64,000 bases of DNA, from assembly GCA_015067005.1 (NCBI GenBank), contig SVNH01000007.1:41410-105409 (forward strand). Reading direction: 5' to 3'. The notes beneath the pieces are model-generated. The model made no database searches, had not been told where the DNA came from, and was given only the letters and a program-made list of their open reading frames with translations. The position numbers and the translations under genes were made by a program. The DNA is from Ruminococcus flavefaciens (GTDB taxonomy: Bacteria; Bacillota; Clostridia; Oscillospirales; Ruminococcaceae). How positions within the stretch are numbered: the stretch's first letter is position 1; each line of letters starts with the position of its first letter. Positions 47,202 to 61,461 of this stretch are shown here, piece by piece.

Positions 47202-47224
47202 TTTACACACATTTTACACACAAT
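47202..47224. repeat. attL core candidate
   Basis: TTTACACACATTTTACACACAAT is identical to 61438-61461 except for a single A indel. Confidence 0.75.
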
Positions 47225-47275
47225 CTTATACAAAAACACCCCTCCGAGGACTGAACCTCAGAGGGGATTTTTGTA

Positions 47276-48055
47276 CTATTTGAGCCACATATCTGCAAGA
47301 GCGCAAAACATGGCGTTAGTTGTACGCGGACCGATAATGCCGTCGGCAGGACCGCAGTCGTAGCCGCGAGTGATAAGCGCGAGCTGAAGATCCTTAACGT
47401 CTGCGGAGTTGTCCGGACTGAACGTGCGCTTCGAGGGACTTCCGAAGCCGTTGTCTCCTGCGTCCCTGATTATTTGCGGATAATCGAGGTAACACTCATC
47501 GACATCAGTATCGCCGGATATGCCTGCAACACGCCCCTTGCCTGACTGCCACATACCGTAGTCGCCGCTGTACGCTGGTTTATCCACATCGTAGTTGGCA
47601 ACCCATATCGTGAAGCGTTTCTTGATATAGTCAGTCGTGTAGTTAGTCAGGAAGTATGAGGACATATACAGTCCGGCATAGTAGCCTGCATTTTCGAGTT
47701 CTGTAAGGAATGCGTTGATGATTGCGCTGACCTTCTCGCGTCCGAGAGCGAATACCTTCTGCTCCTCAACATCGAAGTAAATGGGGTACTCAAACTGCTT
47801 GCCCTTGAGTATCTCGATGCAGACAGCAGCTTCACGGCGAGCTTCATCCTCGCTCATCGCGTAGCTGTACCAGTATGCGCCGCAGGGAATTCCAGCTGAT
47901 TTTGCACCGGCATAATTCCTCTCGAACTTCTTATCCTTCTGGGATGCTTCCCTGCCGTATCCGGCACGAATTATCACGAAATCTGTGTTGACAGCAGACC
48001 AGTCAATGTCTCCCTGCCACTCAGAAACGTCGATACCATTTTTAGTCATTTTCAT
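47276..48055 (-). CDS. phage endolysin: GH25 muramidase + PG_binding_1 domain
   Basis: GIDVSEWQGDIDW..FVIIRAGYG (GH25). The C-terminal LQLALITRGYDCGPADGIIGPRTTNA is a peptidoglycan-binding repeat. The start is ATG 48055 or 48049, downstream of AGGAGG. Confidence 0.85.
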   Translation of the reverse strand: MKMTKNGIDVSEWQGDIDWSAVNTDFVIIRAGYGREASQKDKKFERNYAGAKSAGIPCGAYWYSYAMSEDEARREAAVCIEILKGKQFEYPIYFDVEEQKVFALGREKVSAIINAFLTELENAGYYAGLYMSSYFLTNYTTDYIKKRFTIWVANYDVDKPAYSGDYGMWQSGKGRVAGISGDTDVDECYLDYPQIIRDAGDNGFGSPSKRTFSPDNSADVKDLQLALITRGYDCGPADGIIGPRTTNAMFCALADMWLK

Positions 48056-48242
48056 TTTCCTCCTTTTTGGATTTGATTGTTTGCGTACCAAAATAGAAAC
48101 CGATTATCATCGTGTAAACTGACATAAAAATCTGCGGTTCTATTTCGCCGCATACTGCAAGATATGTAAAAGCGCCGGTCAGCGTGAATGTGACCAGCGT
48201 TTTTACGTCTATTAACTTAGCAAGCCTGTCCTTAATTTTCAT
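48042..48242 (-). CDS. holin (two TM helices, charged C-terminus)
   Basis: 66 aa: LVTFTLTGAFTYLAVCG and IFMSVYTMIIGFYFG helices, KSKKEENEND tail. It overlaps the endolysin start. Confidence 0.7.
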   Translation of the reverse strand: MKIKDRLAKLIDVKTLVTFTLTGAFTYLAVCGEIEPQIFMSVYTMIIGFYFGTQTIKSKKEENEND

Positions 48243-48450
48243 GTTCCAAGTCCTCCAATCTGTGGTTGATGACCTTGATCTGCTCCTCGACTACCGGCAG
48301 GCGCTGCGCGAAGTGATTGTGCTCCGCGACACGGTTTTCAAGCTGCTGCAAGCGGTAGTTCGTAAGCTTCGAGCTGACGAGGATACCGCCAAGCGAGCCT
48401 CCAAGAGTGCCGACAAGTGAAAGCATTGCGACTATGATGTTTGTGTCCAT
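48232..48450 (-). CDS. holin-like membrane protein (N-terminal TM + coiled coil; BhlA/UviB-like)
   Basis: 72 aa: IIVAMLSLVGTLGGSLGGILV TM helix followed by a heptad-rich segment. It overlaps the holin start. Confidence 0.55.
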   Translation of the reverse strand: MDTNIIVAMLSLVGTLGGSLGGILVSSKLTNYRLQQLENRVAEHNHFAQRLPVVEEQIKVINHRLEDLEHEN

Positions 48451-48467
48451 TACTTTGCCTCATTTCT

Positions 48468-49043
48468 TTATAAATCATTGTAAAAATAACGTTGCTGAAC
48501 TCCGTAGTGACGTACACCGTCTATTTCGATATAAGGTTTTACAACTGCACCAAGACCGTCTCCGCGGTTGTCATTAATCATAGATGTTACACTCATCGAA
48601 TTATCTAAGCCTATGTCTCCATCGCAGTTTTCGGTTGTTATTTCGGTATTGTATGGGAACGAGCGCGCTGCCAAAAAACCAGTTCTTGTAACAACTCCAC
48701 TACCACTATAATAACTTGTAGCTGTAAAGCGTATTCTATATGGATTATCAGTTTGTTTTTCGACTTCCGATATTTCTGCATATCCTACATACGCCATAAA
48801 TGTGCGGAGTAGCGTAATATCAGATGTGTTAGCAGCTATCTGAGCCACCTTCGCACTGTCGATTCCGCTGTTCACGGCAGCGAGCTGAAAAGTGGTGAGA
48901 GCGTCCTGCTTACTTTCGATTGCATCCACATTATCTTTCAGCGCTTCATCTATGGTGTCTGCGTTATCGTTGAGTTGCTCGATTAATATAGGATCATCTG
49001 TGCCGGGCTTAATCAGCCCATAATTAGTTGTCGATGTTGGCAT
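48468..49043 (-). CDS. phage tail fibre / receptor-binding-like protein
   Basis: The N-terminal TTNYGLIKPGTDDPI motif is common at phage fibre N-termini. It sits between the tail endopeptidase-like gene and the lysis cassette. Confidence 0.45.
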   Translation of the reverse strand: MPTSTTNYGLIKPGTDDPILIEQLNDNADTIDEALKDNVDAIESKQDALTTFQLAAVNSGIDSAKVAQIAANTSDITLLRTFMAYVGYAEISEVEKQTDNPYRIRFTATSYYSGSGVVTRTGFLAARSFPYNTEITTENCDGDIGLDNSMSVTSMINDNRGDGLGAVVKPYIEIDGVRHYGVQQRYFYNDL

Positions 49044-50328
49044 ATTTCTGCACATCCTTCCATGTGTATTTTGCTACCTCTCCCCACTTATAGGCGGCAG
49101 CTCCACCCCAAGTTCTGAGCGCTCGGAGCGTCATATCACTGAGCTGTGTGTTGATAGCAATGATTTCTTTGTCAGCAGGAGTATCTCCGCTGCTGACTGT
49201 TTCAGACATAAACGTTCTGCGTGTGATCGCGCCCTTGAAACTGCCGATCTGGATCTCCATAGTCCTTTGAGCGACAGCGTCAAAGCGCTTGCTGATGATT
49301 TCGAGGTTCGAGTAGTAGATGTCAAGGTCGCTATGATACACCGTTATCCTATCGCCTACCTCAAAGCTGTCGAGATCTATATACTGCCTGTACTTTTCGA
49401 GGTCTGACAGGTTAGCAAAGCGCACTGTAATGTTGATTTTTGACTGCTTGTGCTCATCGAAATAGGCTTGTGCATCCGCATGGAACTGCTGCACATTTTT
49501 TGTGTCATAGTTAAATCGTGCATATCCGTAGATGTGATGCGGTATAGCCTGCGTTGGAACATCAGGATTGCTGATCGTGTAGGTATTTCCGAAGTTGTCC
49601 TCTGCTTTCAGAATTGTTATCAGCTGCGAGTCATCTTCCTCGAATTCAATTTCCGTCATGTTGTAGCTGTACATGATAACACCGGATTTTCGGCAGTTCT
49701 CCATTTCTGAATTCAACGAAAAATAGTTGCCGTGCCGGTATAGCCTTCCGCCCCAGCGATTGACAAATGCTTGATCTACGCCAAGCAGTGCAGATACTAC
49801 ATTGCAGTTCTGATAGTACGCAGTTGCTGTCTTGACGATGTCTGAAGAGTACGTGAAATCGTTTGAAAAACTGCCGTACCAGCCGTGAGAGAAAAGCCAG
49901 TCCAGTGCCGCTTGCCCTTTTAGTGCTGTCGGGCGGCAGTCCTGTATAAGATAGCGTGAAATGTCGTAGAATCGGTGCTGTGCTATTGCTGTGATACGAT
50001 AGTTTCCGTAACTATCCATTTTTCGCGTTACCTGACGGACACGAAATTCCTCGTTTATCAACTCACCGTGATAGTGTATAGGAATTTTGACTTGCGCCTG
50101 CTTTTTCAAATAGCTGAACTTTTGATACTTGTCGCAGTATGTCTCGAAGGTTGCCTCATATGTACCGTTTTCTTCGTGATAGACCTCACAGCTGATAGGT
50201 TCGAGGATAGCGTATCCGTTGCCGGACATCTGCTTGTCACGGCTGTCGTATACGTGTATCATAGGGCGCGGAGGCTGTAATTCCATTGTCGGCGGCTGCA
50301 TTTTCGGAATTAATGGACTGTATATCAT
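49024..50328 (-). CDS. siphovirus tail endopeptidase / minor structural protein (Prophage_tail-like); 5' end uncertain
   Basis: MIHVYDSRDKQ..GYAILEPISCEVYHEENGTYEATFE.. matches the usual N-terminus of tail-associated lysins. None of the three candidate ATGs (50328, 50286, 50262) has an SD, which fits a deletion junction just upstream. Confidence 0.6.
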   Translation of the reverse strand: MIYSPLIPKMQPPTMELQPPRPMIHVYDSRDKQMSGNGYAILEPISCEVYHEENGTYEATFETYCDKYQKFSYLKKQAQVKIPIHYHGELINEEFRVRQVTRKMDSYGNYRITAIAQHRFYDISRYLIQDCRPTALKGQAALDWLFSHGWYGSFSNDFTYSSDIVKTATAYYQNCNVVSALLGVDQAFVNRWGGRLYRHGNYFSLNSEMENCRKSGVIMYSYNMTEIEFEEDDSQLITILKAEDNFGNTYTISNPDVPTQAIPHHIYGYARFNYDTKNVQQFHADAQAYFDEHKQSKINITVRFANLSDLEKYRQYIDLDSFEVGDRITVYHSDLDIYYSNLEIISKRFDAVAQRTMEIQIGSFKGAITRRTFMSETVSSGDTPADKEIIAINTQLSDMTLRALRTWGGAAAYKWGEVAKYTWKDVQKYANIDN

Positions 50329-50348
50329 GCCGTTATTAGTTACGCCGT

Positions 50349-50519
50349 CTACACGCCAGAGGATGTCTGGATAGCGTCAAGCTGCTTGATCTCAGCTTCG
50401 ATTTCGTCAAACTTCTTTGTCTCCTCATCGGTAAATGCTCTGTTCTCGGTCTTGACCGCTTCCAGCATGGAATTGAGGAGAGCCACAAGTCCGGCTCTTC
50501 TTTCGATAAAATTTTTCAT
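50349..50519 (-). pseudogene. 5' fragment (delta-domain only) of an HK97-fold major capsid gene
   Basis: MKNFIERRAGLVALLNSMLEAVKTENRAFTDEETKKFDEIEAEIKQLDAI is the typical capsid N-terminal coiled coil. The ORF stops after 56 codons, 20 nt before the tail gene. GGAGG SD upstream of ATG 50519. Confidence 0.7.
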
Positions 50520-50556
50520 TATTTTTTCCTCCATTTCGTTATTTGGATATAAAAAT

Positions 50557-50594
50557 AGCGCCTGCGACCGACATTCTTGTCGGTTGCAAACGCT
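50557..50594 (-). terminator. conserved long hairpin plus U-run immediately upstream of the capsid fragment
   Basis: Minus strand: AGCGTTTGCAACCGAC-AAGAAT-GTCGGTCGCAGGCGCT-ATTTTTATA. It is homologous at the stem base to 51998-52033. Confidence 0.55.
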
Positions 50595-50610
50595 TTTTAA
50601 CGTATTAGGT

Positions 50611-50664
50611 GTGCAGTTGACTGCACAGATGGGTATAAGAAAACCGCCTAATTACTTAGACGGT
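50611..50664 (-). repeat. 54-nt repeat, copy 1 (terminator hairpin + 18-bp palindrome)
   Basis: 53/54 identical to 56009-56062. Minus strand: ACCGTCTAAGTAATTAGGCGGT-TTTCTTATACCCAT-C-TGTGCAGTCAACTGCACA. Confidence 0.9.
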
Positions 50665-50856
50665 TTAATCGTTATTCGATTCGCCCCATGTGCTTACATG
50701 ATCCTTGCACTTTTTGCATATTTCCTTGTAGTTAGGCTTGACCTTGAATTCGTTGGGAATATACGACTCGTTCCCGAACATCTCATCAACAACATCGGTT
50801 ATTACAAGGCAATCACCCGGTTCAATTTCATCATCAATAAGTGGGCATTTGGCCAT
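50665..50856 (-). CDS. small Cys-containing protein, immunity-like partner of cassette 2
   Basis: 63 aa. AAGGAG SD 8 nt upstream of the ATG. It starts 5 nt after the stop of the 50862-51386 ORF and is followed directly by 54-nt repeat copy 1. Confidence 0.5.
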   Translation of the reverse strand: MAKCPLIDDEIEPGDCLVITDVVDEMFGNESYIPNEFKVKPNYKEICKKCKDHVSTWGESNND

Positions 50857-50861
50857 TTATA

Positions 50862-51386
50862 TCACTCCTTTTCCTTCAAGTGCTTATTTACAGTATCGAG
50901 TATCCTATCAGTTCCGGGGTTAAACTCTTTTTTTGGGAATGATGTTCTTATGAGATTTTTGGTAATATTAACATACGTTGCACCTTTATCACCATAATAG
51001 TTCTCAAACTCTTCGCCTTCTATAACTTTCGTTACAGAAATTTTCGCGTTTTTTATATACTGTCTTGCACTTTTGAGATTGACATCATGGTTTTCGTCCA
51101 TTATATGCTTTTTATCAAAGCCAAGACTATCCACGTCGATCTCTCTTGGCGGTATATGAATCTCGCCATTGAAATTTGTTGACTTGAAATCAGCTATAAT
51201 CTCTTCCTTATGTTCAATTATAGCATCTTTTTCGGATTTGTCAACCTTTTTCTTAGTCTTTGCACCGCCGTTGCTGTAAAGGCGCGGAGTTTTGCCGCCT
51301 GCTCCTCTGGAAGAACCTCCGCCTTCATCACCGATCAGGATATGCCGTCCATTTCTGGTGATCCATCCGCGAAGTTCAATTGCCCT
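50862..51386 (-). CDS. effector-like ORF (cassette 2) with no start codon of its own, in frame with the protease TGA
   Basis: Manual translation from the codon after TGA 51387-51389: RAIELRGWITRNGRHILIGDEGGGSSRGAGGKT...KKKVDKSEKDAII...GFDKKHIMDENHDV...IRTSFPKKEF..*. The first ATG/GTG/TTG is only at 51134. The N-terminal 45 aa are paralogous to 56292-56840. Confidence 0.5.
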   Translation of the reverse strand, partial: RAIELRGWITRNGRHILIGDEGGGSSRGAGGKTPRLYSNGGAKTKKKVDKSEKDAIIEHKEEIIADFKSTNFNGEIHIPPREIDVDSLGFDKKHIMDENHDVNLKSARQYIKNAKISVTKVIEGEEFENYYGDKGATYVNITKNLIRTSFPKKEFNPGTDRILDTVNKHLKEKE

Positions 51387-51968
51387 TCACTCGTAATCGA
51401 GCATTTTCAGCCTGTTCTCATACTCGGTATAGTCAGGCTTGTTCTCAATATAGAGTTCCGGCTCGATGTCAAGTCCGCGCTGTTCGATGTCAATATCTTC
51501 TCCGGCTCTGCACTCAACTGAGGTCGCTGCATAACACGGGACCTTATCCTTTATGAGAGACACATGGTCAAGCAGGAAGCCCTTTACATGGCGTATCGGT
51601 AATTCATCAGTGCCTCTGCTTTCCATTTCATCCTGTACGTTGTACATTCCGAACGACCAGCCTCTCAGCTTACCCTTACGCGCCATCTCTATTACCGTTT
51701 CGTCTGTGATAAGAGTCTCGGCATGAAGACCGATAGCATCCTCTCTAAGAGTAAGTGTATTATCTCTTGTGCTCGCATAGGCGTGTCCCTTGTCATGGTC
51801 AAGAGTTACCGTTACTTCTCCGCTGTTCTTGATCGCCTCAGAAAAGGCTCTTTCCTCGATAGTTTCAATGACCTTTCCTCGCGGCGTTATTACAGGGCGT
51901 GAACGCTTTCCGGTAACGTTTACGTATCCGCTGATATGCAGACCGTCCGCTCTTACTTCGATTTTCAT
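51387..51968 (-). CDS. HK97-family prohead protease (S78)
   Basis: MKIEVRADGLHISGYVNVTGKRSRPV...VTLDHDKGHAYAST..LREDAIGLHAE. The start is set at ATG 51968 with a GGAAGTGA SD. Confidence 0.75.
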   Translation of the reverse strand: MKIEVRADGLHISGYVNVTGKRSRPVITPRGKVIETIEERAFSEAIKNSGEVTVTLDHDKGHAYASTRDNTLTLREDAIGLHAETLITDETVIEMARKGKLRGWSFGMYNVQDEMESRGTDELPIRHVKGFLLDHVSLIKDKVPCYAATSVECRAGEDIDIEQRGLDIEPELYIENKPDYTEYENRLKMLDYE

Positions 51969-51997
51969 TCTTTCACTTCCTTTTAGGTATAAAAATA

Positions 51998-52033
51998 GCA
52001 CTTGCAACTTAGTTTCAAACTTGTTGCAAATGC
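51998..52033 (-). terminator. conserved hairpin plus U-run immediately upstream of the protease gene
   Basis: Minus strand: AGCATTTGCAAC...GTTGCAAGTGCT-ATTTTTATAC. It shares the stem base and tail with 50557-50594. Confidence 0.5.
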
Positions 52034-52045
52034 TTGTAAGCGGTA

Positions 52046-52279
52046 TTAAAGATCGATGCGAGCCAGTTCAGCACGAAGCTCCAGTATGTGAAGATATTCG
52101 CCCATAACGGTCTGCTGCTTTTTCAGAAGCGCCCTGCTGTACATATCTTCCGGCTCTTCTGCAACGTCTTTGAGCAGATAGGCTTCAACTTCCTGCTTGT
52201 TATTATAGACTTTCAGTTTCTCATATCGTTCCTTTGTCTGAGCGTACTCAGCTTTCAGCCTGTCCTTCCAGTCATCCAT
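52046..52279 (-). CDS. small conserved phage protein (crAss001_48-like helical protein)
   Basis: MDDWKDRLKAEYAQTKERYEKLKVY...LLKKQQTVMGEYLHILELRAEL. GGAGGTGA SD upstream of ATG 52279. Confidence 0.5.
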   Translation of the reverse strand: MDDWKDRLKAEYAQTKERYEKLKVYNNKQEVEAYLLKDVAEEPEDMYSRALLKKQQTVMGEYLHILELRAELARIDL

Positions 52280-52303
52280 TCCCTCACCTCCTTCAAATGG
52301 GCA

Positions 52304-52332
52304 TAAAAAAACCGCCCTCATTGAGAACGGTT
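52304..52332 (-). terminator. intrinsic terminator ending cassette 3
   Basis: Minus strand: AACCGTTCTC-AAT-GAGGGCGGTT (two G-U pairs) followed by TTTTTTATG. It abuts the stop of 52332-52526. Confidence 0.55.
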
Positions 52333-52526
52333 TAATTAATTATTTCGAGACTTTTTATTTCAGATTGAAGATAATATTGACCATTTGTTAAGCCAATGAT
52401 AGGCTCATCGTATCCACTGTCATCCTCTGTCTCATATAAATCAGCGACAGCAATAATTTCATTATCATCACTATCGACAAGCTTAACCTTTTTGCCCAAT
52501 GCATCATATAAGCTAACCATGTTCAA
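52332..52526 (-). CDS. small acidic protein, immunity-like partner of the portal-borne toxin domain (cassette 3)
   Basis: 64 aa. The ATG overlaps the portal stop by 4 nt (ATGA). Confidence 0.5.
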   Translation of the reverse strand: MNMVSLYDALGKKVKLVDSDDNEIIAVADLYETEDDSGYDEPIIGLTNGQYYLQSEIKSLEIIN

Positions 52527-54277
52527 TCTCCTTCAATAGGTGCCGACGGAACTAAATGAGTCCCTTTTTTTGAATAATGAATGGTTGCGCGATGTGTAGG
52601 AATATATTTTCCTGTTCTCAAATCACCAAACATTCCGATATTTTCTTTTAGCGAAATAGTCTCTCTAAATTGTCCATCTTGTCCTTTACGGACTTTGCCA
52701 GTGAGTGAATAAGTATTAATAATTTTTTGAATTTCCATATTGCTCATTTCAGTATAGCTTGGCATTCTCCCTTCAGCTATACGCTTCAAATACTCAGCCG
52801 AGTCTTTCTTATGAGCTAATTGAGCTTTTTTATCAAGCTTTGTGACAATTTTACCGTCAGCAATAGCCTTTTCAAGTTCTTTTTTATTCTTTTCAAAGTC
52901 AATTATATCACTTTTCTCAGTTTTGTCAACCTTTTTCGCTGATTTTCCGCCGCTTTTTGAACTGTCTCCGGACTTGCCGCCGTTATTGCCGCCGGTGCTG
53001 CCGTTCATTTTGCCGTTTGGAAGCTGTATGTACTCCCTGAGTTCCATACCGTCTGCTCTCTCTTCGCCTGTTTTCAGATTCTTAGTCTGTCCTGTATTCG
53101 GCGTGAATACGTCCATTGTCTCGGGATTGAGGAGAACATCCTGCAAGCCAAGCTTAATGAAGTTGAAGCCGAGCGGTTCATAGTCCTCTTCGCGGCGTAT
53201 TTCATCCACCTGAAGAATGTTATTCCGGACAGCGATCTCGTAAGCATCATAACGTTCCTTTAAGCTGCCGCGTGTGAGTTCCTTCGTGTCGAATGCCCAG
53301 TAGTACCCCTGCTCCTTCTCGGATTCCAGCAAAAGAACGTTGTCGAGCTCAGTCTCGATCTGATTGATTATTGATATTACTGCCGCTATAAACTTCTTGT
53401 TATCGTCCTCGGTAGCTCCGCCGTCAATGACCGTGTGAGGGAAGCCAAACAGCTTACAGATCTCGATGCTGTTGGTCTTCTTGTTCTCGTTCATCTGGAG
53501 TTCTGCCGCCGTTGATGATATAGCCTCGAAGTCTATTCCGTCATTGAGCACAAGTATTTTCTCCCGATTGTCCTCATTGTCGTATACCCGCGCATATCCT
53601 TCCTTGATAGATGCAATAGCAGCGTCCGAGAGACGGTTCTTCGACTTCAAAAAGCCGGGCTTACATCCGCCGTTGGAGTTCATCATGTTCTCAAGTTTCA
53701 GAGAGTTCCACGCTGCGGACAGTATCGCGGAAGCTTCCTTCTGCAACGGTATATTGGTATAGCCGTCTCTGGTCTTTCTCAGGAGCTTAATGAACTGAAA
53801 ATCATAGTAAGTGACCGCATTTATCTGCACACGAAACGCCTTGAAGATAGGATCCTGATTACACAGATAACTCACATTGGTGCTGTCGACATAATTCAGG
53901 CTTTTTGTATTCAAACCGTCACTGTTGACGTATATCCATGCACCGCCGCCGAGGTAATAGTCCTCGATAGCCGCCTTCCACATATCTACTGTGCTGAGTG
54001 TATCGCCGGTATTGCCGTTGAGCAGCTTAATACGCGGATCATCGTATATTTCGGTGACCTCTTCCTCGTCACGCTTGTATAGCTTCACCGGAAGCTGCGA
54101 AATCGTATCACCTATCTTGTTGATACAAGCAGATACAGTCGGTATGCTTATCGCTGCCTCTCTGGTGAGTTCTCCAGTAATACCGAAGAATGTCAGTATT
54201 GATGTCTCAGCTCCTGACGGAGTATCCGCTCTTATTTCCTGCTTCTTTTTCCTTCTGAAAAGTCCTATTTTGAACAC
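52523..54277 (-). CDS. phage portal protein (HK97-type) fused to a C-terminal polymorphic-toxin-type-50-like domain
   Basis: Residues 1-405 are portal-like (IPTVSACINKIGDTISQLPVKLY...). Residues 411-460 are the shared linker ELREYIQLPNGKMNGSTGGNNGGKSG..KKVDKTEKSDII. Residues ~484-580, QLAHKKDSAEY...LTGKV..G..RE.I....IG......T....IHYSKKGTHLVPSAP, match my recollection of Ntox50 domains at MuF C-termini. GTG start. Confidence 0.7.
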   Translation of the reverse strand: MFKIGLFRRKKKQEIRADTPSGAETSILTFFGITGELTREAAISIPTVSACINKIGDTISQLPVKLYKRDEEEVTEIYDDPRIKLLNGNTGDTLSTVDMWKAAIEDYYLGGGAWIYVNSDGLNTKSLNYVDSTNVSYLCNQDPIFKAFRVQINAVTYYDFQFIKLLRKTRDGYTNIPLQKEASAILSAAWNSLKLENMMNSNGGCKPGFLKSKNRLSDAAIASIKEGYARVYDNEDNREKILVLNDGIDFEAISSTAAELQMNENKKTNSIEICKLFGFPHTVIDGGATEDDNKKFIAAVISIINQIETELDNVLLLESEKEQGYYWAFDTKELTRGSLKERYDAYEIAVRNNILQVDEIRREEDYEPLGFNFIKLGLQDVLLNPETMDVFTPNTGQTKNLKTGEERADGMELREYIQLPNGKMNGSTGGNNGGKSGDSSKSGGKSAKKVDKTEKSDIIDFEKNKKELEKAIADGKIVTKLDKKAQLAHKKDSAEYLKRIAEGRMPSYTEMSNMEIQKIINTYSLTGKVRKGQDGQFRETISLKENIGMFGDLRTGKYIPTHRATIHYSKKGTHLVPSAPIEGD

Positions 54278-54283
54278 TTCCTT

Positions 54284-55798
54284 TCATATTATCTGACAGC
54301 CGAAGCCCTGATCCATGTTATCGAGAACGTTTACCTGCAAAAGGAACAACGCATTTATAACTGATACTACCATATCGACCTTGCCGGCAGACTTCTTTTT
54401 GTTGACATACTGATTGAGGTTAGTATCCTGTGTACAGCGTGAGTTCTCGAAGTTTATCTCAAGCATCTGGTTTTCTTCATACCTGAACTTCTGACTGAGA
54501 ATATATTCTTTCAGCAGCTTTGTCGGACGATGAAGGGCGCTGGAATGCTGCTTGATCTCAACACATTCGATAGGCTCTTCTCCACTTTCATGTTTCTGAA
54601 CCGTAGATATAGCATTGTACCGGTCGAAACCTAACTGCACGATCTCCACACCGTATTTCTCCGGAAGTGACTGTATGAACCGCTCAACAAAGCCGTAATC
54701 TATGACTTCATCACCGCAGGCGAAGCAGTCACCATTGGAAATAAGTTTATTGTAGTTCACTTTTTCCTTCTGTGATTTCTTTTCTATGCTGTCAGCCGGA
54801 ATAAAGCCCCACACCTTTACATATATCAGATCCTCGATTTCGTCATATGCTGCCATAGCGACCGAAGTATTATCATCGGTCTGTGACAGATCAAGTCCGA
54901 TATAGACCTGCCTGCCACTCCAGAATCCATTATCTTTCGGAGCTTTACATAGCCTGACCTTCGTTATATCCACAAAGCCCTCAACTCCGAGTCCCTTGTA
55001 GAGAATGTTCATATGCTTGCACAGGAAATTCGGGCGGCTGTTCTCATAAAGGATGGCTTCCTGCCGCTTTTTCAGGAGTTCGGCAAACATATAGTCGTGT
55101 GCATAAGCCGCAGGATTTGCCTGATAAAGTGCAATGTCCGAGGTTTGCCAAATATCGCCTGTCTTAAACTCATCGTCCGGTTCATACAGCAGTGAGAAGC
55201 GTTTCTCATAGTCGTTCAGACCGTCAAGCGCCTTCTTTGACTTGTCGATTTCATCTATCATTGCATTATTATCGTTCGGATACTGCGTTGATATGATGAT
55301 ACCAAGCTTCTCTCTGAGTGCTATCTGCGATGAGCGCATAGCTTCAATGGGATAATTATCCATATCGCCGCACTCGTCAGCAAGGAACATATTCGCCTGT
55401 TTACCGTCAAGCCTGTCCTGAGAATACGCAAGAGGAGTAAACTCTGACTCTGTCAGCTTGCAGCGCACCTCCTTACGCATCAACTTGAATATCTTCTCGT
55501 CAGCTATGTAAGGACTTGATTTTATTATCTTCTTTACAGCATTGTGCAGCTCGCTTGACAGCTTCAGGTCAGGAGCTACACTGAAAAAGCGACTGAACTG
55601 TGGCTCTGTCAGGAGACCGATAATAAAAATGACCGCAGACGTGAACGTTTTGAAGTTCTTACGTGCGATCTCTAAAAGCCCTGTCTCATAATACCGCAGA
55701 TTATCACTCCTGCGCTTAGTACAAAACAGAGCATATATAAACAATACTGCATAATCTTCAAGTCCCTCGTACATTGAGTGACCGAGATCCGGGTGCAT
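54284..55798 (-). CDS. terL: terminase large subunit, possibly degenerate
   Basis: Terminase_1-like: LEIARKNFKTFTSAVIF (Walker-A position reads F where G is expected), FLADECGDMD. The frame stays open and homologous for 63 more codons up to ATT 55987 (IDIVKDSRAYKYALWCAESDNHYVGRYVKRQAEQW), with AAAGGAG 10 nt upstream, but there is no ATG/GTG/TTG there. Confidence 0.7.
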   Translation of the reverse strand: MHPDLGHSMYEGLEDYAVLFIYALFCTKRRSDNLRYYETGLLEIARKNFKTFTSAVIFIIGLLTEPQFSRFFSVAPDLKLSSELHNAVKKIIKSSPYIADEKIFKLMRKEVRCKLTESEFTPLAYSQDRLDGKQANMFLADECGDMDNYPIEAMRSSQIALREKLGIIISTQYPNDNNAMIDEIDKSKKALDGLNDYEKRFSLLYEPDDEFKTGDIWQTSDIALYQANPAAYAHDYMFAELLKKRQEAILYENSRPNFLCKHMNILYKGLGVEGFVDITKVRLCKAPKDNGFWSGRQVYIGLDLSQTDDNTSVAMAAYDEIEDLIYVKVWGFIPADSIEKKSQKEKVNYNKLISNGDCFACGDEVIDYGFVERFIQSLPEKYGVEIVQLGFDRYNAISTVQKHESGEEPIECVEIKQHSSALHRPTKLLKEYILSQKFRYEENQMLEINFENSRCTQDTNLNQYVNKKKSAGKVDMVVSVINALFLLQVNVLDNMDQGFGCQII

Positions 55799-56008
55799 GA
55801 TAAGCTTCAGAAGCTTTGTTATCTTCTTCCAGCGTTTCTCGCAGACGTATGCTGCGGCATTTTTACCGTTGACGACAGCGAGCCACTGCTCCGCCTGCCG
55901 TTTGACATACCGTCCGACATAGTGATTATCAGACTCTGCACACCACAGAGCATACTTGTATGCCCGGCTGTCCTTTACTATGTCAATTCTCAGTCAGCTC
56001 CTTTCTCT

Positions 56009-56062
56009 GTGCAGTTGACTGCACAAATGGGTATAAGAAAACCGCCTAATTACTTAGACGGT
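56009..56062 (-). repeat. 54-nt repeat, copy 2
   Basis: 53/54 identical to 50611-50664. It overlaps the last 4 codons and stop of 56050-56295 and lies directly upstream of the TerL SD. Confidence 0.9.
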
Positions 56063-56295
56063 AATCTGTCTTTATTCTGTTCGATAAGGTCATAGATATA
56101 GTCAGGAAGAGTACCGTTTTTCCACTGTTCGCGGTGCTGATTTTGGCTTCTATGATTGCAGCCTCCCTTATAGTCAGGATCTTCACGCTGAATAAGATCA
56201 TCAAACCAACCGCAAATAGGGCATAAATCAAAACTGTCCTTTTCTTCGAAATAGAACTGTCTGCAAACAGGACAAATCAAGTTTTCATCTTTCAT
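56050..56295 (-). CDS. Cys-rich CPCC-type small protein, immunity-like partner of cassette 1
   Basis: 81 aa: LICPVCRQFYFEEKDSFDLCPICGWFDD. The ATG overlaps the stop of 56292-56840 by 4 nt. Confidence 0.6.
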   Translation of the reverse strand: MKDENLICPVCRQFYFEEKDSFDLCPICGWFDDLIQREDPDYKGGCNHRSQNQHREQWKNGTLPDYIYDLIEQNKDRLPSK

Positions 56296-56840
56296 TCCTT
56301 TACACCTTCTGCTTTCTCGAAACGCTTATAGTATTCAACGCCTTCTCTTGGCTTAAACAAGGTTATTAGCCCTTTGTTAACATTTGCCTTAACATAGTCG
56401 TTTTTCTTGACATCATAACGGCAGATATGGCCTTCTTTGGTCTTATAACCTAAGATTTTCTTTCCGTCAGCAGCACTTTCAGCAAGCTCTACGCCCCGCT
56501 TTTCATATTGCTCTTTGGTCGTTATACCGTCAGGCTTGTATTCTTCAGCGTGTGTTCTGCCGTTCTGCCAGTGATTATTCAGCTTCTGCTTGCTTGGAAA
56601 GCCCTTTTTCCTAAGTTCATTCTTACCAGTAGCAGATACTTCCTCTGGCTTTATTATACCACTTTTCGCGGATTTGTCAATACTCTCGCCTGCTCCGCTG
56701 GAAGAACCTCCTCCGTCATCTCCGATCAGGATTTGCCTTCCGTTTTTAGTTATCCAGCCGCGAAGCTCAAGCCTGTGAGTTTCTATATCTATTGCTCTGA
56801 GTACGTGCTCGGCATAATCTATGAACCACTCCCTGCTCAC
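56292..56840 (-). CDS. effector-like protein (cassette 1): shared ELRGWIT linker + nuclease-toxin-like C-terminal domain
   Basis: GTG start with an AAGGAG SD 10 nt upstream. N-terminus ..IDYAEHVLRAIDIETHRLELRGWITKNGRQILIGDDGGGSSSGAG. C-terminus NNHWQNGRTHAEEYKPDGITTKEQYEKRGVELA..ILGYKTKEGHICRYDVKKNDYVKANVNKGLITLFKP. Confidence 0.6.
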   Translation of the reverse strand: MSREWFIDYAEHVLRAIDIETHRLELRGWITKNGRQILIGDDGGGSSSGAGESIDKSAKSGIIKPEEVSATGKNELRKKGFPSKQKLNNHWQNGRTHAEEYKPDGITTKEQYEKRGVELAESAADGKKILGYKTKEGHICRYDVKKNDYVKANVNKGLITLFKPREGVEYYKRFEKAEGVKE

Positions 56841-57096
56841 CTCTGCTCGTCTCCTTCGTTATCTTCGACATAGTTCATGCCCCTTTCAATCGTTATAGAA
56901 TGTGAGCCAAGAAACTTATTACTGCTCTTGTAAAAAAGCCAATAATAAACCATTTCCAAAATATCGATGCATAGTTTGTCTTCTTTCCTGCCGTACCAGT
57001 TGCGGCAGGATTTTTCATTTCCTGCTCCTGCTCTTCCTTTTCCACTCCTCCCCCTCCTTTCCTTTATCGCTGTGAGTGATTGCTTTTGGTTAGTTT

Positions 57097-57112
57097 GTCG
57101 CATTTACGCGAC
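57097..57112. promoter_or_regulatory. operator-like near-palindrome (second copy)
   Basis: TTTGTCGCATTTACGCGACT shares TTTGTCGCAT-N4-GCGACT with the site at 57338-57353. Confidence 0.4.
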
Positions 57113-57173
57113 TGTATCGCTAAAAAAAATTGATGTTGCTTCATCATAATTAAGAGAAAGAACCTCGATAAGT

Positions 57174-57317
57174 CTATCCGCTTCTCTTATCGTAAAATGA
57201 ATTGTTCTTCATTTTACGATAAAAAGTAGCCGGATTGATGCCTATATCAGCGGATACACATTCAACATTCTTGCCTTTTTCAACTATCTTTGCTTTTAAC
57301 TTTTGAACATTAAGCAT
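57174..57317 (-). CDS. Cro/excisionase-like small HTH protein
   Basis: 47 aa from ATG 57317 (AGAGGTGA SD): MLNVQKLKAKIVEKGKNVECVSADIGINPATFYRKMKNNSF. It diverges from the CI-like repressor gene. Confidence 0.6.
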   Translation of the reverse strand: MLNVQKLKAKIVEKGKNVECVSADIGINPATFYRKMKNNSFYDKRSG

Positions 57318-57337
57318 TGTATCACCTCTTGTCCTTT

Positions 57338-57353
57338 GTCGCATATATGCGAC
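57338..57353. promoter_or_regulatory. operator: perfect 16-bp palindrome in the switch region
   Basis: GTCGCATATATGCGAC lies between the leftward -10 box and the cro-like start. Confidence 0.55.
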
Positions 57354-57365
57354 TTTCTTGATATT

Positions 57366-57394
57366 ATAATACCACGCTCTCAAACGTTTGTCAA
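57366..57394 (-). promoter_or_regulatory. leftward (lytic) promoter
   Basis: Minus strand: TTGACA, 17 nt, TATTAT, with an overlapping TATAAT 3 nt further downstream. Confidence 0.55.
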
Positions 57395-57444
57395 TACCTT
57401 TTCGCACTTTTTGAGATTTTTTTTGTAAAGTTACATTTTCTCTA

Positions 57445-57473
57445 TTGCATTTTTGCGAATATCGTGTTATAAT
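57445..57473 (+). promoter_or_regulatory. rightward (repressor) promoter
   Basis: TTGCAT (57445-57450), 17 nt, TATAAT (57468-57473). Confidence 0.6.
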
Positions 57474-57502
57474 ACAAAAAACAGAAAAGTTGGTGATAGA
57501 TA

Positions 57503-58156
57503 ATGACTATTGGTGAAAGAATAAAGCAACGACGCAAAGAGCTTGGCTTGTCAGTCGATGAACTCGCTGAAATGCTCCATAAAAATCGTGCTACTATATA
57601 CAGATATGAAAGTAACGAAATTGAAAAGCTTCCAACCACTGTATTAGAACCATTAGCAAAAGCATTAGGTGTTACTCCAGCATACCTTATGGGTTGGGAA
57701 ATAGAACTCCGAGCTGTTGATCCTTTCGATGAACTTTACGCAAAATACGACAACATCAAGCCCATAAAGATGAAGCGCTTTCCGATGCTGGGCGAGATAG
57801 CCTGCGGAGAGCCTGTCTTTGCTGATGAAGATAAGGAACACTATATTATGGCAGATATGGATATCAACGCCGATTTCTGCCTTACCGCAAAGGGCGATAG
57901 CATGATTAACGCCCGTATATATGAGGGGGATATCGTTTTTATAAAGGAAATGCCTATGGTTGAAAACGGCGAGATCGCAGCTGTTATCATTGAGGATGAG
58001 GCTACGCTCAAACGTGTTTACTATTACAAAGAAGACAACCTGCTCCAGCTCGTTGCTGAGAACCCGAAGTATAAGCCTCTCGTCTATCAGAATGAGGATC
58101 TTGACCGCATACGCATCCTCGGCAAGGCGGTCTATTTTATGAGCGCGGTGGAATAA
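57503..58156 (+). CDS. CI/LexA-like phage repressor (XRE HTH + S24 peptidase)
   Basis: HTH: IKQRRKELGLSVDELAEMLHKNRATIYRYE. S24 domain: AKGDSMINARIYEGDIVFIK...ATLKRVY. Confidence 0.85.
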   Translation: MTIGERIKQRRKELGLSVDELAEMLHKNRATIYRYESNEIEKLPTTVLEPLAKALGVTPAYLMGWEIELRAVDPFDELYAKYDNIKPIKMKRFPMLGEIACGEPVFADEDKEHYIMADMDINADFCLTAKGDSMINARIYEGDIVFIKEMPMVENGEIAAVIIEDEATLKRVYYYKEDNLLQLVAENPKYKPLVYQNEDLDRIRILGKAVYFMSAVE

Positions 58157-58167
58157 GGAGGTAGCTT

Positions 58168-58740
58168 ATGAACATATACACGATAATAGGCGGAGTAAAC
58201 GGCGCAGGCAAGAGCAGTCTTTCCGGTGTTCTGACGGCTGAGAACTCAGACCTCGGTATCATCATCGACACCGACAAGCTCAATGCTTCATTCGGCGGCG
58301 ACCGCATAAAGGGCGGCAAGGCTGCAATAGCTCTGATAGATGACTGTCTCAGCAAACGTATAAACTTCACTCAGGAGACCACTCTCTCAGGCGTGAGAAC
58401 ACTGAAAACCATACAGAAAGCCCGTGAGCTCGATTACTTCATAAGACTTTACTATGTAGGCATCAGCTCCGCAAATGAGAGTATCAAGCGCATTAAGAAC
58501 CGTGTTGAAAAGGGCGGTCACGATATACCGTCCGCTGACGTTGAAAGACGTTACCTCAAGCGCTTTGATGACCTTGCAAAGGTGCTTCCCTACTGCAACG
58601 AGGTCAGATTTTTCGACAACGAGAACGGATTTGCAGAAAAAGCTGAGTACCGCAACGGTCAGCTCATAACCAAAGGCGGAGATATACCGCAGTGGCTCAC
58701 AGAGCTGAGAAAATATCTGGATAAAGGGGCAGAGATATGA
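58168..58740 (+). CDS. zeta-toxin-like P-loop kinase/ATPase (COG4185-type)
   Basis: Walker A IIGGVNGAGKSS; 190 aa; RVEKGGHDIP segment. AAGGAGG SD; starts 12 nt after the repressor stop. Confidence 0.65.
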   Translation: MNIYTIIGGVNGAGKSSLSGVLTAENSDLGIIIDTDKLNASFGGDRIKGGKAAIALIDDCLSKRINFTQETTLSGVRTLKTIQKARELDYFIRLYYVGISSANESIKRIKNRVEKGGHDIPSADVERRYLKRFDDLAKVLPYCNEVRFFDNENGFAEKAEYRNGQLITKGGDIPQWLTELRKYLDKGAEI

Positions 58741-59138
58741 ATATAGTAAAATATCCATCTGAGGAAGCCGTAAGCAAGGTAATGGCAGCAGACGAGCCGC
58801 TGCTGGTACTCATTTCCTTTAACGGTGAGACTGCCATTATGAGCCAGATAGATGAGGCTATGGAGCATCATATCCTGCTGATGAATGCCGGCTTCAAGGA
58901 TACCGACATCGACAAGTTCTTCCGCATAGTCCTCGACCGCAGCGGTGCAGACTGGACTTTCATCTGTCCGCCGGACTACAAGGGGATACCATTCAATGAT
59001 AAGCGCATAGAAGCGTTCTACAAGGACGGCTTTGCGGTAATATCAAACTTCCTGCACTCTATCGGATACCTTGTAGGTATAAATATCCCGAAGCGTTACA
59101 GACGGCATCTTGATGTCCTCAGCAATGACACATATTAA
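58737..59138 (+). CDS. hypothetical protein translationally coupled to the zeta-like ATPase
   Basis: 133-aa ORF. The ATG overlaps the upstream stop (ATGA). No motif recognised. Confidence 0.5.
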   Translation: MNIVKYPSEEAVSKVMAADEPLLVLISFNGETAIMSQIDEAMEHHILLMNAGFKDTDIDKFFRIVLDRSGADWTFICPPDYKGIPFNDKRIEAFYKDGFAVISNFLHSIGYLVGINIPKRYRRHLDVLSNDTY

Positions 59139-59190
59139 AATTCCCCCTGCCAAAAAACAGGAGTTCAAACCATAAAAGAGCTGATACAAC

Positions 59191-60204
59191 ATGAATGACA
59201 TAAACAAAGAAATGCAGTTTTTACTATACCATTCTGATGAAGATGATGTATCAGTAAACGCTGTCATTAAGAATGAAAGCATCTGGATAACACAAAATGC
59301 TATGGCGGAGCTGTTTGGCTGCTCTACTGATAACATTTCTCTTCATTTGAAGAATATATATTATGACGGAGAATTAAGTAAAGATTCAACTACCGAGAAA
59401 TTCTCGGTAGTTCAAAATGAGGGTGGCAGGGACGTTTCAAGAAATATTACTTTTTACAACCTCGACGCTATAATCTCCGTAGGCTACCGTGTGAACTCAC
59501 ACCGTGCTACGCGCTTCCGCATCTGGGCAACTTCTGTCCTTAAAGAATACATGATAAAAGGCTTTGCTATGGACGATGAACGTCTGAAACAAGGTGAAAC
59601 TGCTTTCGGTAAAGACTACTTCCGCGAACTCCTTGAAAGAGTACGCTCCATTCGTGCCAGTGAGCGCAGAATATGGCAGCAGATAACTGATATTTTCGCC
59701 GAGTGCAGCATAGACTACGATAAAAATTCAGATATAACTAAGAAGTTCTATGCAACTATTCAAAACAAGTTTCACTATGCAATAACTGGTCAGACAACTG
59801 CGGAGATAGTTTATTTCTCTGCCGACCATGAAAAAGACCACATGGGCTTGACCACATGGAAAAACGCTCCCGAAGGAAGAATACTAAAATCGGATACAAC
59901 AATAGCCAAGAATTACCTCGAAGCCGACCAGATCAGAAGCCTCGAACGCAGTGTGTCTTCCTATTTTGATTACATCGAAGGTCTTATAGAACGAGAGAAT
60001 ACATTTACCATGCTCGAATTCTCTGAAAGCGTTAACGCTTTCCTGTCTTTCAACAAATACGACATACTCAAGGACCAAGGACAGGTTTCTCACGCTGATG
60101 CTGAGAAAAAAGCTCACAGCGAGTATGATATTTTCAATAAAACTCAGAAAATCAAGTCAGACTTCGACAAGGAAATTGATAAAATGCTGAAAAGTAAAGA
60201 ATAA
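59191..60204 (+). CDS. RhuM-family protein
   Basis: IWITQNAMAELFGCSTDNISLHLKNIY...FYNLDAIISVGYRVNSHRATRFRIWATSVLKEYMIKGF is characteristic of RhuM. Confidence 0.75.
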   Translation: MNDINKEMQFLLYHSDEDDVSVNAVIKNESIWITQNAMAELFGCSTDNISLHLKNIYYDGELSKDSTTEKFSVVQNEGGRDVSRNITFYNLDAIISVGYRVNSHRATRFRIWATSVLKEYMIKGFAMDDERLKQGETAFGKDYFRELLERVRSIRASERRIWQQITDIFAECSIDYDKNSDITKKFYATIQNKFHYAITGQTTAEIVYFSADHEKDHMGLTTWKNAPEGRILKSDTTIAKNYLEADQIRSLERSVSSYFDYIEGLIERENTFTMLEFSESVNAFLSFNKYDILKDQGQVSHADAEKKAHSEYDIFNKTQKIKSDFDKEIDKMLKSKE

Positions 60205-60244
60205 AATAATCCCCCGCCGGTGCTGGAACACTAACGAGGGATAT

Positions 60245-60294
60245 GGACGTGCTATCACACATCACAACAATGTAATTATAGCACGTCCTTCTTG
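60245..60294 (+). terminator. possible terminator between the cargo genes and the integrase gene
   Basis: GGACGTGCTAT...ATAGCACGTCC 11-bp stem (22-nt loop) followed by TTCTT. Confidence 0.35.
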
Positions 60295-60326
60295 AAATGT
60301 CAAATTTTAGGAAGGTGGATTGAAAT

Positions 60327-61436: not shown

Positions 61437-61437
61437 T

Positions 61438-61461
61438 TTTACACACAATTTTACACACAAT
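61438..61461. repeat. attR core candidate
   Basis: TTTACACACAATTTTACACACAAT; see attL. Confidence 0.75.

Follow-up and report, generated by a model that had tools for sequence, protein, structure and literature searches.

A decayed prophage in a 64,000-nucleotide stretch of Ruminococcus flavefaciens DNA (contig SVNH01000007.1; the whole stretch is hereafter called the window) carries three minus-strand loci that are likely to be polymorphic effector/immunity cassettes of HK97-like temperate Ruminococcus phages. Each cassette would be attached to a protein inside the procapsid, namely the C-terminus of the portal, the C-terminus of the prohead protease, or a free-standing open reading frame (ORF) that bears a leader. 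After the carrier would come a hairpin and a disordered Gly-rich linker, an in-frame promoter, a variable C-terminal domain (the tip), and a coupled small ORF with a terminator. A fuller proposal, which we hold to be possible but on balance rather doubtful, is that the linker acts at once as a protein tether, a constitutive in-frame promoter and a recombination site, with UGA readthrough and a leader resembling the protease tail as loading routes.

Consensus promoter sequences coincide with a linker common to three cassettes

The linker lies within ORF-A, the free-standing effector ORF (182 aa; 56292-56840, minus strand; read from a GTG start with a ribosome-binding site, RBS), where its sequence is ELRGWITKNGRQILIGDDGGGSSSGAG..IDKSAKSGII. 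In ORF-B (174 codons; 50862-51386, minus strand), which is in frame with the protease and begins directly 3' of its stop codon, the sequence is ELRGWITRNGRHILIGDEGGGSSRGAGG..KKKVDKSEKDAII, and in the portal protein the linker occupies aa ~411-460 (ELREYIQLPNGKMNGSTGGNNGG..KKVDKTEKSDII). Linkers A and B have 84 nt in common at 86% identity, a 42-nt block is common to all three, and the module recurs in dozens of relatives. The original prediction, made from the sequence of the window, had started from such a common linker at three minus-strand loci and had named a merely compositional Gly/Ser similarity as the finding that would overturn it; the nucleotide identity and the conservation of motifs in homologues uphold the former and refute the latter. 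ORF-A is laid out as a leader helix (aa 1-24; 56769-56840), a ELRGWITKNGRQILIG hairpin (aa 25-40; 56721-56768) and then the disordered Gly-rich linker, while ORF-B runs from an RAI-ELRGWITRNGRHILIG hairpin through the Gly-rich linker into tip B; the hairpin motif of the cassettes is ELRGWITKNGRHILIG or a variant of it.

A scan for promoters returned three perfect sigma-70-type sites with an extended -10 element, each lying exactly on the KKVDKSEKxxII motif of a linker. The site of cassette A (TTGACA-16-TG-TATAAT; 56653-56680, minus strand), which is kept in relatives, encodes IDKSAKSGII; that of the portal cassette (52902-52929, minus strand) encodes VDKTEKSDII; and that of cassette B (51217-51244, minus strand) encodes VDKSEKDAII. 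All three score 12/12 and have the TG extension. The pattern TTGACA-N13-TGnTATAAT occurs three times in the 64-kb window, once per cassette, against an expectation of 0.01. Among about 37 distinct linkers of relatives, TTGACA and TG are invariant, and the -10 hexamer reads TATAAT in about 31 of them, with TAAAAT in its place in 6. Spacers vary, and the codons that overlap the promoter shift between V, I and L, between S, N, T, D, G and P, and between G, D and A. Because the hexamers stay while the overlapping codons vary the amino acid, the conservation of the linker motif points to selection on the DNA rather than on the peptide. The original prediction had expected KKVDK-EK to be conserved in homologues; it is kept, mainly through selection on a promoter that the prediction had not seen. 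Genuine intergenic promoters nearby in the same genomes have the same TG-extended consensus. A perfect promoter within a protein-coding linker appears to be undescribed.

The sequence 3' of the promoter offers little from which a free tip could be translated. Tip A has no in-frame start codon 3' of its promoter. The earliest ATG, GTG or TTG that tip B has past its promoter is a GTG, lacking a clear RBS, at a distance of about 28 codons. A free toxin is therefore unlikely to be made from the promoter transcript.

Each small ORF is followed by a hairpin and a T-run, as had been predicted of the cassettes, with folding energies of -13.6, -15.6 and -15.0 kcal/mol and z-scores of -4.0 to -5.3. The terminator of cassette A (56024-56062, minus strand) consists of a hairpin at 56041-56062 and a conserved 3' end, GGTTTTCTTATACCCATTTG; that of the portal cassette (52294-52333, minus strand) of a hairpin at 52309-52333 and the conserved 3' end GGTTTTTTTATGCCCATTTG; and that of cassette B (50610-50664, minus strand) of a hairpin at 50643-50664 with the 3' end GGTTTTCTTATACCCATCTG and the native inverted repeat TGTGCAGTCAACTGCACA. 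The motif GGTTTTYTTATRCCCATYTG stands behind each hairpin and occurs exactly three times in the window, against none expected. The added genes are thus bounded by a promoter and a terminator of their own, as judged by consensus sequence, and they are absent from the same site in relatives: the portals of L009, L010 and L012 have no tip, and the capsid gene comes straight after the protease gene in L001, L003, L005, L006 and L007. Their base composition is not distinct (GC content 0.435-0.451 over 50-56 kb, like the flanks, in coarse 2-kb windows). By its sequence, each cassette is a moron as that unit has been defined (PMC3594210), and the most economical reading is that the promoters would provide constitutive expression of the antidote from the repressed prophage.

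In one relative, L004, a free-standing cassette has a PBECR2 tip whose end is formed by a second ..KKVDKSE* motif (2776-2804), again a perfect TTGACA-17-TGaTATAAT promoter, directly upstream of the large terminase gene (TerL). This suggests deletion or recombination between two linker promoters, with possible constitutive transcription into TerL. At one position of the linker, at least four short motifs are interchangeable (WITKNGRHILIG, YIQGPDGKMxGS, NHNHDxKGRF(A/S)SG and WIKGEHGYFAGS, taken from the window, L001-L011 and P0006-P0033). They have in common aromatic-x4-[DNH]G-basic/aromatic-x2-G, and variants of them also connect NUDIX domains to tip A; they may serve as a cleavage site, a docking hairpin or something else.

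The tips and their coupled small ORFs

As the original prediction had it, the three linkers lead into three different C-terminal domains, and the tip of the portal matches the Ntox50 family (PF15542) well above threshold (E=1.2e-15, 58.5 bits against a gathering cut-off of 22.2). Within the 584-aa portal ORF, the Phage_portal domain covers aa 46-365, the portal body extends to ~aa 410, and the Ntox50 tip covers aa 483-577 (nt 52547-52831), ending in the HxVP motif of the family (HLVP; ...THRATIHYSKKGTHLVPSAP). This motif and the predicted BECR fold of Ntox50 have been described (PMC3482391). A portal domain and a BECR-fold RNase are thus found in one polypeptide, which makes the protein a portal-BECR fusion.

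Tip A (ORF-A aa ~75-180) is an alpha+beta domain that matched no Pfam family and that resembles the C-terminal end of the PHROG portal family phrog_15528 (E=4e-31). The AlphaFold2 model of ORF-A had a mean pLDDT (the model's per-residue confidence) of 77.7, with values above 90 over most of the tip. When tip A was compared with known structures by Foldseek, the best match was CdiA-CT (8ey4_A; E=6.8e-4, TMt 0.82, root-mean-square deviation 2.1 Å), and the next was the colicin D tRNase (1v74_A, probability 0.96). Because it superposes on CdiA-CT and colicin D, tip A is predicted to be an RNase of BECR-like fold. No Pfam or PHROG family matched tip B; in the AlphaFold2 model of ORF-B (mean pLDDT 70.8), tip B has a helices-then-four-strands layout like that of tip A, and it is probably, though not established as, an RNase. 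By sequence, neither tip A nor tip B gave a significant match in the PDB, the best being 8ey4 for tip A at E=0.42. Among the seven cassette proteins, PADLOC gave no matches and NCBIfam matched only the portal and the protease. A MuF domain was not found by Pfam or PHROGs in the ten proteins of the head region (49024-56840); the one exception was a PHROG named 'minor head protein', whose C-terminal end was weakly matched.

A small ORF is coupled to each tip. Small ORF A (81 aa; 56050-56295, minus strand) is a Cys_rich_CPCC protein (PF14206, E=3.6e-13) whose start overlaps the stop of ORF-A (ATGA). Small ORF B (63 aa, Cys-rich; 50665-50856, minus strand; phrog_27009, E=7e-16) starts 5 nt past the stop of ORF-B. 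Small ORF C, behind the Ntox50 tip (52332-52526, minus strand; phrog_1865, E=1.8e-7), has 64 aa when read from a TTG that overlaps the portal stop (TTGA); a start at the ATG at 52518-52520, 2 nt past the portal stop and behind GAAGGAG, which gives 62 aa, is more likely. The sizes and positions of the three ORFs, within 5 nt of the effector stop or overlapping it, are as first predicted, and all three have a strong RBS.

In relatives the small ORFs move with their tips. Tip A has the CPCC ORF behind it on the portals of L005 and L008, on an XkdF-type protease in L014, after the small terminase gene (TerS) in L015 and after the protease in L016, and the pair is found in five carrier contexts, one of them in an unrelated Mu-like phage. 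Tip B occurs on the portal of L007 (R. flavefaciens SAb67) at 84% identity and is followed there by a homologue of small ORF B at 65% identity; Ntox50 tips in L011 and L013 are followed by ORFs related to small ORF C; and a DUF4258 tip keeps its 78-80-aa ORF on the portal and after TerS alike. The association therefore holds whatever the carrier, so that the refuting result named in the original prediction, small ORFs not kept beside the tips of relatives, was not obtained, and we take the small ORFs to be candidate immunity proteins, for tip A, tip B and Ntox50, respectively.

Polymorphism of the cassettes among related phages

We compared about 50 related loci; a scan of portals with one genome per species gave 11 Ruminococcus loci and one Atopobiaceae locus. 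The portal bodies are 65-92% identical up to ~aa 410 (...NTGQTKNLLTGEERAE), after which come the linker and varied tips, or nothing. Behind the one linker, 39 distinct complete tips fall into 14 families, eight of which occur on more than one kind of carrier (portal and non-portal); portals, prohead proteases and free-standing ORFs that follow TerS or TerL serve as carriers. PBECR2 and DUF4258 are among the further tips (Pfam), RadC/JAB-like, caspase-like and zincin-like tips were recognized by motifs read in the translations, and NUDIX domains (precomputed Pfam) serve as carriers. Unrelated phages have the same tips as the C-terminal parts of their portal, MuF and protease proteins. We find, then, constant carriers with varied tips, a small gene that moves with the tip, and tips held in common with other delivery systems, and on these sequence features this is a predicted polymorphic effector/immunity system of HK97-like Ruminococcus phages. 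The grammar of polymorphic toxin-immunity systems that the original prediction had recognized is thus supported by the 14 tip families and the recurring pairs of tip and small ORF, and its alternative of ordinary structural domains is answered by the Ntox50 match, the CdiA-CT/colicin D fold, and DUF4258 and PBECR2 in relatives. It knew of no described system with several such cassettes on different capsid-interior proteins of one element; several per element are normal in this lineage, L004 and L008 also having three.

The boundaries of cassette B could be placed by comparison with relatives that lack it. There, the inverted repeat TGTGCAGTCAACTGCACA lies within about 8 nt of the protease stop, and cassette B is inserted exactly between the two. 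At its 5' edge, the sequence ..E-TGA-R-A-I-E-L-R.. resembles the portal junction, ..E-E-R-A-E-D-I-E-L-R.., and its 3' end (50610-50664) is 98% identical to 56008-56062, forming a 55-nt repeat. The conserved cassette ends and the 84-nt and 55-nt repeats fit an exchange of cassettes by homologous recombination.

An 18-bp inverted repeat, TGTGCAGT(C/T)(A/G)ACTGCACA, is found at 50610-50627 and 56008-56025 of the window. Across the phage lineage it is intergenic, just upstream of TerL and of capsid or protease genes, in one or two copies (L001, L003, L005-L008, L013, L016, L020 and others), and it could be a putative regulator-binding or RNA-processing site.

The leader of the free-standing ORF and the in-frame stop after the protease

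In relatives, the free-standing ORF is flanked by TerS and TerL or by TerL and the portal gene, with an ATG(ATG) start that overlaps the upstream stop. ORF-A had been predicted to sit in the place of the small terminase gene; by this comparison it does not, and TerS is simply missing from the window. The free-standing ORFs open with a conserved leader of about 24 aa (MMNKDWFMDYAEHAVRVIDIETHWY) ahead of ELRGWIT, and in homologues this leader and the linker precede many kinds of tip. When the leader of P0013 (..EPVCIPDYSDYERRLQYIEL..) was aligned with the C-terminal tail of the protease (..EPELYIENKPDYTEYENRLKMLDYE..), the z-scores were 6.6-10.7; those of other leaders were 0.7-4.1, mostly 1.4-3.7. 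The model of ORF-A begins with a helix and a beta-hairpin, at low confidence. The C-terminal tail of the HK97 protease reportedly directs encapsidation. We propose that the leader may be a borrowed capsid-targeting peptide resembling the protease tail. N-terminal capsid-targeting sequences are established in T4 and P1 (PMC7411985, PMC9024508).

The third carrier is the HK97-type prohead protease (Peptidase_S78, PF04586, E=4e-24; 51387-51968, minus strand, from ATG). It ends in ...ENRLKMLDYE followed by TGA (51387-51389), and ORF-B has no ATG, GTG or TTG before codon ~85 (a GTG at 51132-51134, inside tip B). The original prediction had named the protease as a carrier through an in-frame stop, and we find this TGA conserved at the same position in nine distinct junctions (those of the window, L013, L016, L020, L035, L040, L043, L045 and L049). 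Every one of the cassette-bearing junctions (9/9) reads ..L[DE][YF]E-TGA-A.. and then, in frame, R[AV]x[EQ]LRGWIT, ahead of at least six different tips, whereas cassette-less proteases end in TAA in seven of eight cases, the eighth being a TGA that apparently overlaps the capsid start. In the 20 codons past the stop, synonymous changes outnumber non-synonymous ones by 10:1 between the window and L013 and by 10:2 between the window and L020. Tip B of the window, compared with the portal-borne tip of L007, has a dN/dS (ratio of non-synonymous to synonymous substitution rates) of 0.10 at a dS of 0.92, the same as tips in translated contexts, and post-protease tips have values of 0.05-0.16. An unrelated Mu-like phage (L014) has a direct fusion of an XkdF-type protease to tip A without a stop (P0033). 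Programmed readthrough of the UGA after the protease is a serious possibility that we rate a shade below probable; a conserved leaky stop between a head protease and a toxin appears to be undescribed, and we found no report of such readthrough in tailed phages in the literature searched.

Other explanations of the stop codon were considered. That it is a mutated Trp codon, as P0067 (..MLEYEWRAIELRGW..) seemed to indicate, was rejected since the DNA of that protein has TGA. The public record (L013 1220-1777) gives Trp at the stop because genes on this short contig were called under a TGA=Trp code, and database proteins called in this way can mimic fusions. Selenocysteine and a phage-wide recoding of stops were dropped, the window having no suppressor tRNA (its tRNAs are tRNA-Arg, twice, and tRNA-Lys) and a single in-frame stop. 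Termination followed by reinitiation at the third codon past the stop, which is ATT, ATC or TTG in most junctions and GCC in L020 and L043, is a minor possibility that would leave the conserved frame and the preference for TGA unexplained. When the junction pattern was searched with the stop codon left free, one IMG/VR contig was recovered, also with TGA, and nothing was found in the JGI metagenome collection; the broader ELRGWIT pattern recovered 9 and 18 loci.

A proposed mechanism and its alternatives

In the mechanism that we propose, the late operon would make the carrier-effectors during lytic growth, and these would be incorporated into the procapsid and pass into the next cell together with the DNA. 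The late operon would be silent in the lysogen, and the linker promoter would transcribe the tip region and the small ORF; the antidote alone would be made, the small ORF having a strong RBS and the tip no start codon, and the terminator would insulate the late genes downstream. New pairs of tip and antidote would be swapped in by recombination between the linker/promoter and the terminator end, and after the protease the effector would be added through low-level readthrough of the conserved UGA. We infer promoter activity, immunity, packaging, cleavage, injection and readthrough alike from the sequences.

Several observations weigh against this mechanism. Small ORFs A, B and C match no known immunity family, and our literature search gave no paper that ties CPCC domains to immunity. 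The PBECR2 tip in L004 has no detectable small ORF, and none was returned for the RadC-like tip in L007, where the scan window is one that missed overlapping small ORFs elsewhere; if a small ORF is truly absent, the promoter of that cassette cannot serve immunity. The T-runs of the terminators are interrupted (TTTTCTTAT). A tip fused to the portal would need cleavage for its release, and no cleavage site was identified. The top Foldseek matches of tip B, CdiA-CT of NC101 and colicin E5-type RNases, are non-significant (E=0.5-3.7, TMt ~0.5). At the protease stop, no RNA structure is conserved 3' of the UGA (RNAalifold -7.2 kcal/mol, with individual folds that disagree; a small hairpin around the stop in the window and L013 is absent in L020 and L035), the purifying selection past the stop could have been acquired in translated contexts from which the sequences were moved in by recombination, and two of the nine post-protease cassettes (L013 and L043) are interrupted by frameshifts in A-runs, two free-standing ones (L021 and L042) being frameshifted as well. 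The missing RNA structure and the frameshifts in L013 and L043 are what one would expect if only the portal fusion were expressed and the post-protease tips, perhaps with the free-standing ones, were a silent reservoir of orphans for recombination, comparable to orphan cdiA-CT/cdiI or rhs-CT modules, their immunity genes alone being expressed from the linker promoter. ORF-B does follow a stop, and the GTG at codon ~85 is its first ATG, GTG or TTG; as in orphan modules, a piece similar to the carrier junction is retained at the 5' end of the cassette; and polymorphic toxin loci are typified by orphan cassettes that have immunity genes next to them (PMC3482391). We nevertheless consider such a reservoir unlikely, because it does not account for an in-frame TGA-A in all nine junctions when cassette-less proteases prefer TAA, for the synonymous excess right after the stop and the low dN/dS of tip B, for the conserved leader of free-standing ORFs whose start overlaps the TerS stop, or for the existence of the direct protease-tip fusion. 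As to the frameshifts themselves, recognized by comparison with intact homologues, they lie in the tip of L013 (~1745-1760) and in the Gly-rich linkers of L043, L021 and L042, in poly-A runs in L013, L043 and L042, the run being just upstream of the -35 hexamer in L043 and L042; errors of assembly or decay could explain them, as could slip-strand switching by which the toxin frame is changed and the promoter spared.

Two further readings were considered. The cassettes could be intracellular toxin-antitoxin or abortive-infection morons that are never packaged and whose fusion to head genes is an accident of the insertion site; the promoter and terminator of each cassette would suit this, as would the survival of intact cassettes in a remnant that has lost TerS, the capsid gene and most tail genes, and BECR RNases occur among toxin-antitoxin systems as well (PMC3482391). 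It is a quite improbable reading, given that past the promoter tip A has no in-frame start and tip B just a GTG without a clear RBS, that in 14 families the tips without exception continue the reading frame of a procapsid-internal carrier or of a leader resembling the protease tail, that the same tips end portal, MuF and protease proteins of unrelated phages, and that PADLOC matched nothing. Still less can be said for regarding the C-terminal domains as ordinary structural or decoration extensions behind a linker of merely compositional Gly/Ser similarity. Tip B, with no significant family or fold match, could be read that way; the Ntox50 score of the portal tip, the CdiA-CT/colicin D fold of tip A, the 84 nt at 86% identity with an invariant promoter in the linker, and the occurrence of orthologous portals with unrelated tips or none make the idea scarcely tenable. 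We therefore retain the effector/immunity cassettes as the likely explanation of the three loci.

The prophage remnant and neighboring features

The element that carries the cassettes is a defective prophage remnant extending over ~47200-61500. On the minus strand, its gene order begins with a Cro-like ORF, followed by ORF-A and small ORF A, TerL (54284 to ~55987), the HK97-type portal gene (52523-54277; Phage_portal, E=1.9e-45; TIGR01537 in NCBIfam) with its cassette, a 91-aa crAss001_48-like ORF (52046-52321; PF21825, E=2.4e-14), which is also kept in L001, and the protease gene with cassette B; the Pfam matches place TerL, portal and protease adjacent to one another. Beyond cassette B, only the first 61 codons remain of the major capsid gene (50349-50534, minus strand); a tail endopeptidase gene (49024-50328) is joined on at the break, and the lysis genes are found at 47276-48450. 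TerS was absent from the window, and the capsid match was limited to residues 2-63. At the corresponding places relatives have a TerS of 147-156 aa (Terminase_4 family) and a capsid protein of 384-399 aa, and TerS and the replication genes are missing here between the Cro-like ORF and ORF-A. The capsid deletion at about residue 61 makes the prophage defective. This phage can no longer make heads, and it is likely that only the three promoter-driven candidate antidote genes matter to the host. A CI/LexA-like repressor (57503-58156, plus strand) and an integrase-like ORF near 61134 were identified by reading their translations. A megablast search of the 6.9-kb region against 50,697 phage records gave no match.

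Two observations concern neighboring genes. The N-terminus of TerL (55976-55990, minus strand) has no ATG, GTG or TTG; in the window and in L003, L006, L007 and L008, a strong RBS (AAAGGAG) is followed 9-10 nt on by a conserved ATT (ATT GAC ATA GTn), and the start of TerL seems to be this rare ATT codon. Beside the repressor, at 58168-60204 (plus strand), three more ORFs may make up a further accessory or defence module of the prophage: a P-loop ORF of 190 aa (GGVNGAGKS), an overlapping one of 133 aa and one of 337 aa.

Significance and comparison with known systems

If the proposed mechanism is true, a temperate phage would have solved the problem of toxic cargo genetically, immunity being hard-wired to each tip through the promoter in the constant linker, and a captured toxin/antidote pair would at once be loadable into capsids and safe for the lysogen. 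The carriers of virion-delivered effectors would extend beyond MuF and portal proteins to the prohead protease, UGA readthrough would be a recoding event that limits the dose, and the leader, linker and exchangeable tip would form a natural toolkit for loading HK97-like capsids. The dead prophage would perhaps be kept since its three antidote genes could shield the host from the effectors of related rumen phages.

The closest known systems are the MuF toxins, which have a constant head-morphogenesis carrier and a variable C-terminal toxin, mostly a nuclease and in some cases Ntox50 (PMC5576092, PMC3482391); an immunity gene often follows, they are found in temperate phages and prophage remnants of Firmicutes, and delivery with the DNA has been hypothesised (PMC5576092). 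The cassettes described here likewise occupy the packaging module of a prophage remnant, beside portal and terminase. They differ in having no MuF domain, in being carried by an HK97-type portal, an S78 prohead protease or a free-standing leader, and in numbering up to three per phage. They would work like MuF toxins and are not members of that group; the words promoter, terminator and orphan cassette each have no occurrence in Jamet et al. 2017 (PMC5576092). A partial precedent for the layout is Streptococcus phage EJ-1 (L050, AJ609634; 2732-3771), in which the annotators placed a promoter at the 3' end of a MuF-type minor head gene. The C-terminus of that gene product resembles tip A, and four small ORFs and a terminator follow, a moron-like parallel to the cassettes of the window.

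Passages of Iyer et al. 2017 (PMC5512222) describe the fusion of a portal domain to a BECR-fold RNase, predict its packaging and injection, and report PBECR and 2H fusions to MuF and portal proteins. With these and the MuF polymorphic toxins already published (PMC5512222, PMC5576092, PMC3482391), the novelty that had first been claimed for the cassettes does not stand in that form. The PBECR2, RadC-like, NUDIX and zincin-like tips of our relatives fall within the repertoire given in those passages. The polyvalent proteins described there have 2-15 domains, in contrast to the single tip per polypeptide and the cognate small ORFs found here, and neither a protease carrier nor a promoter-bearing linker was found in the searched passages of PMC5512222.

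Orphan CT/immunity (C-terminal toxin and immunity) cassettes of contact-dependent inhibition (CDI), Rhs and MafB systems (PMC3482391) are similar in their toxin-then-immunity order, in the short conserved 5' stretch for recombination and in occurring several to a locus. The cassettes here are dispersed behind different genes of an operon rather than arrayed 3' of one carrier, and the copies outside the portal have a start codon and leader, or a conserved leaky stop. Morons (Cumby, Davidson and Maxwell 2012, PMC3594210) are transcription units added to late operons, each with a sigma-70 promoter and a terminator of its own. Like them, the cassettes are absent from relatives at the same site and would be expected to be expressed from the repressed prophage; unlike them, the promoter is inside a late structural gene and in frame with it, the unit overlaps a protein made only in lytic growth, and GC content is not distinct. 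In the operons of nuclease colicins, an internal promoter in the toxin gene keeps immunity on while the toxin promoter is repressed. Here the promoter is instead in the constant linker upstream of the variable tip, and incoming pairs inherit it.

The proposed leader has counterparts in the internal proteins and Alt of T4 and in DarB of P1 (PMC7411985, PMC9024508), in which a short terminal peptide guides cargo into the procapsid and the cargo is ejected into the host; unlike the capsid-targeting sequences of T4 and P1, it is recognized from similarity to the protease tail alone. For the stop codon, the parallel would be with recoding by which a small and constant share of an abundant assembly protein is made in a longer form. 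The A1 protein of Q-beta is a product of UGA readthrough. Extended virion proteins made by recoding include Gag-Pol of MuLV by readthrough, lambda G/GT, and products of frameshifting in Listeria and Lactobacillus phages, and the tailed-phage extensions in the passages of PMC5009743 that were searched arise by frameshifting rather than readthrough. Set against those passages, a prohead protease extended by in-frame UGA readthrough would be something new. We conclude that phage head proteins with polymorphic effectors are a kind of system already published, and that what is added to it here is a promoter-linker that is dual-coding, a protease carrier linked through a UGA, and a leader resembling the protease tail.

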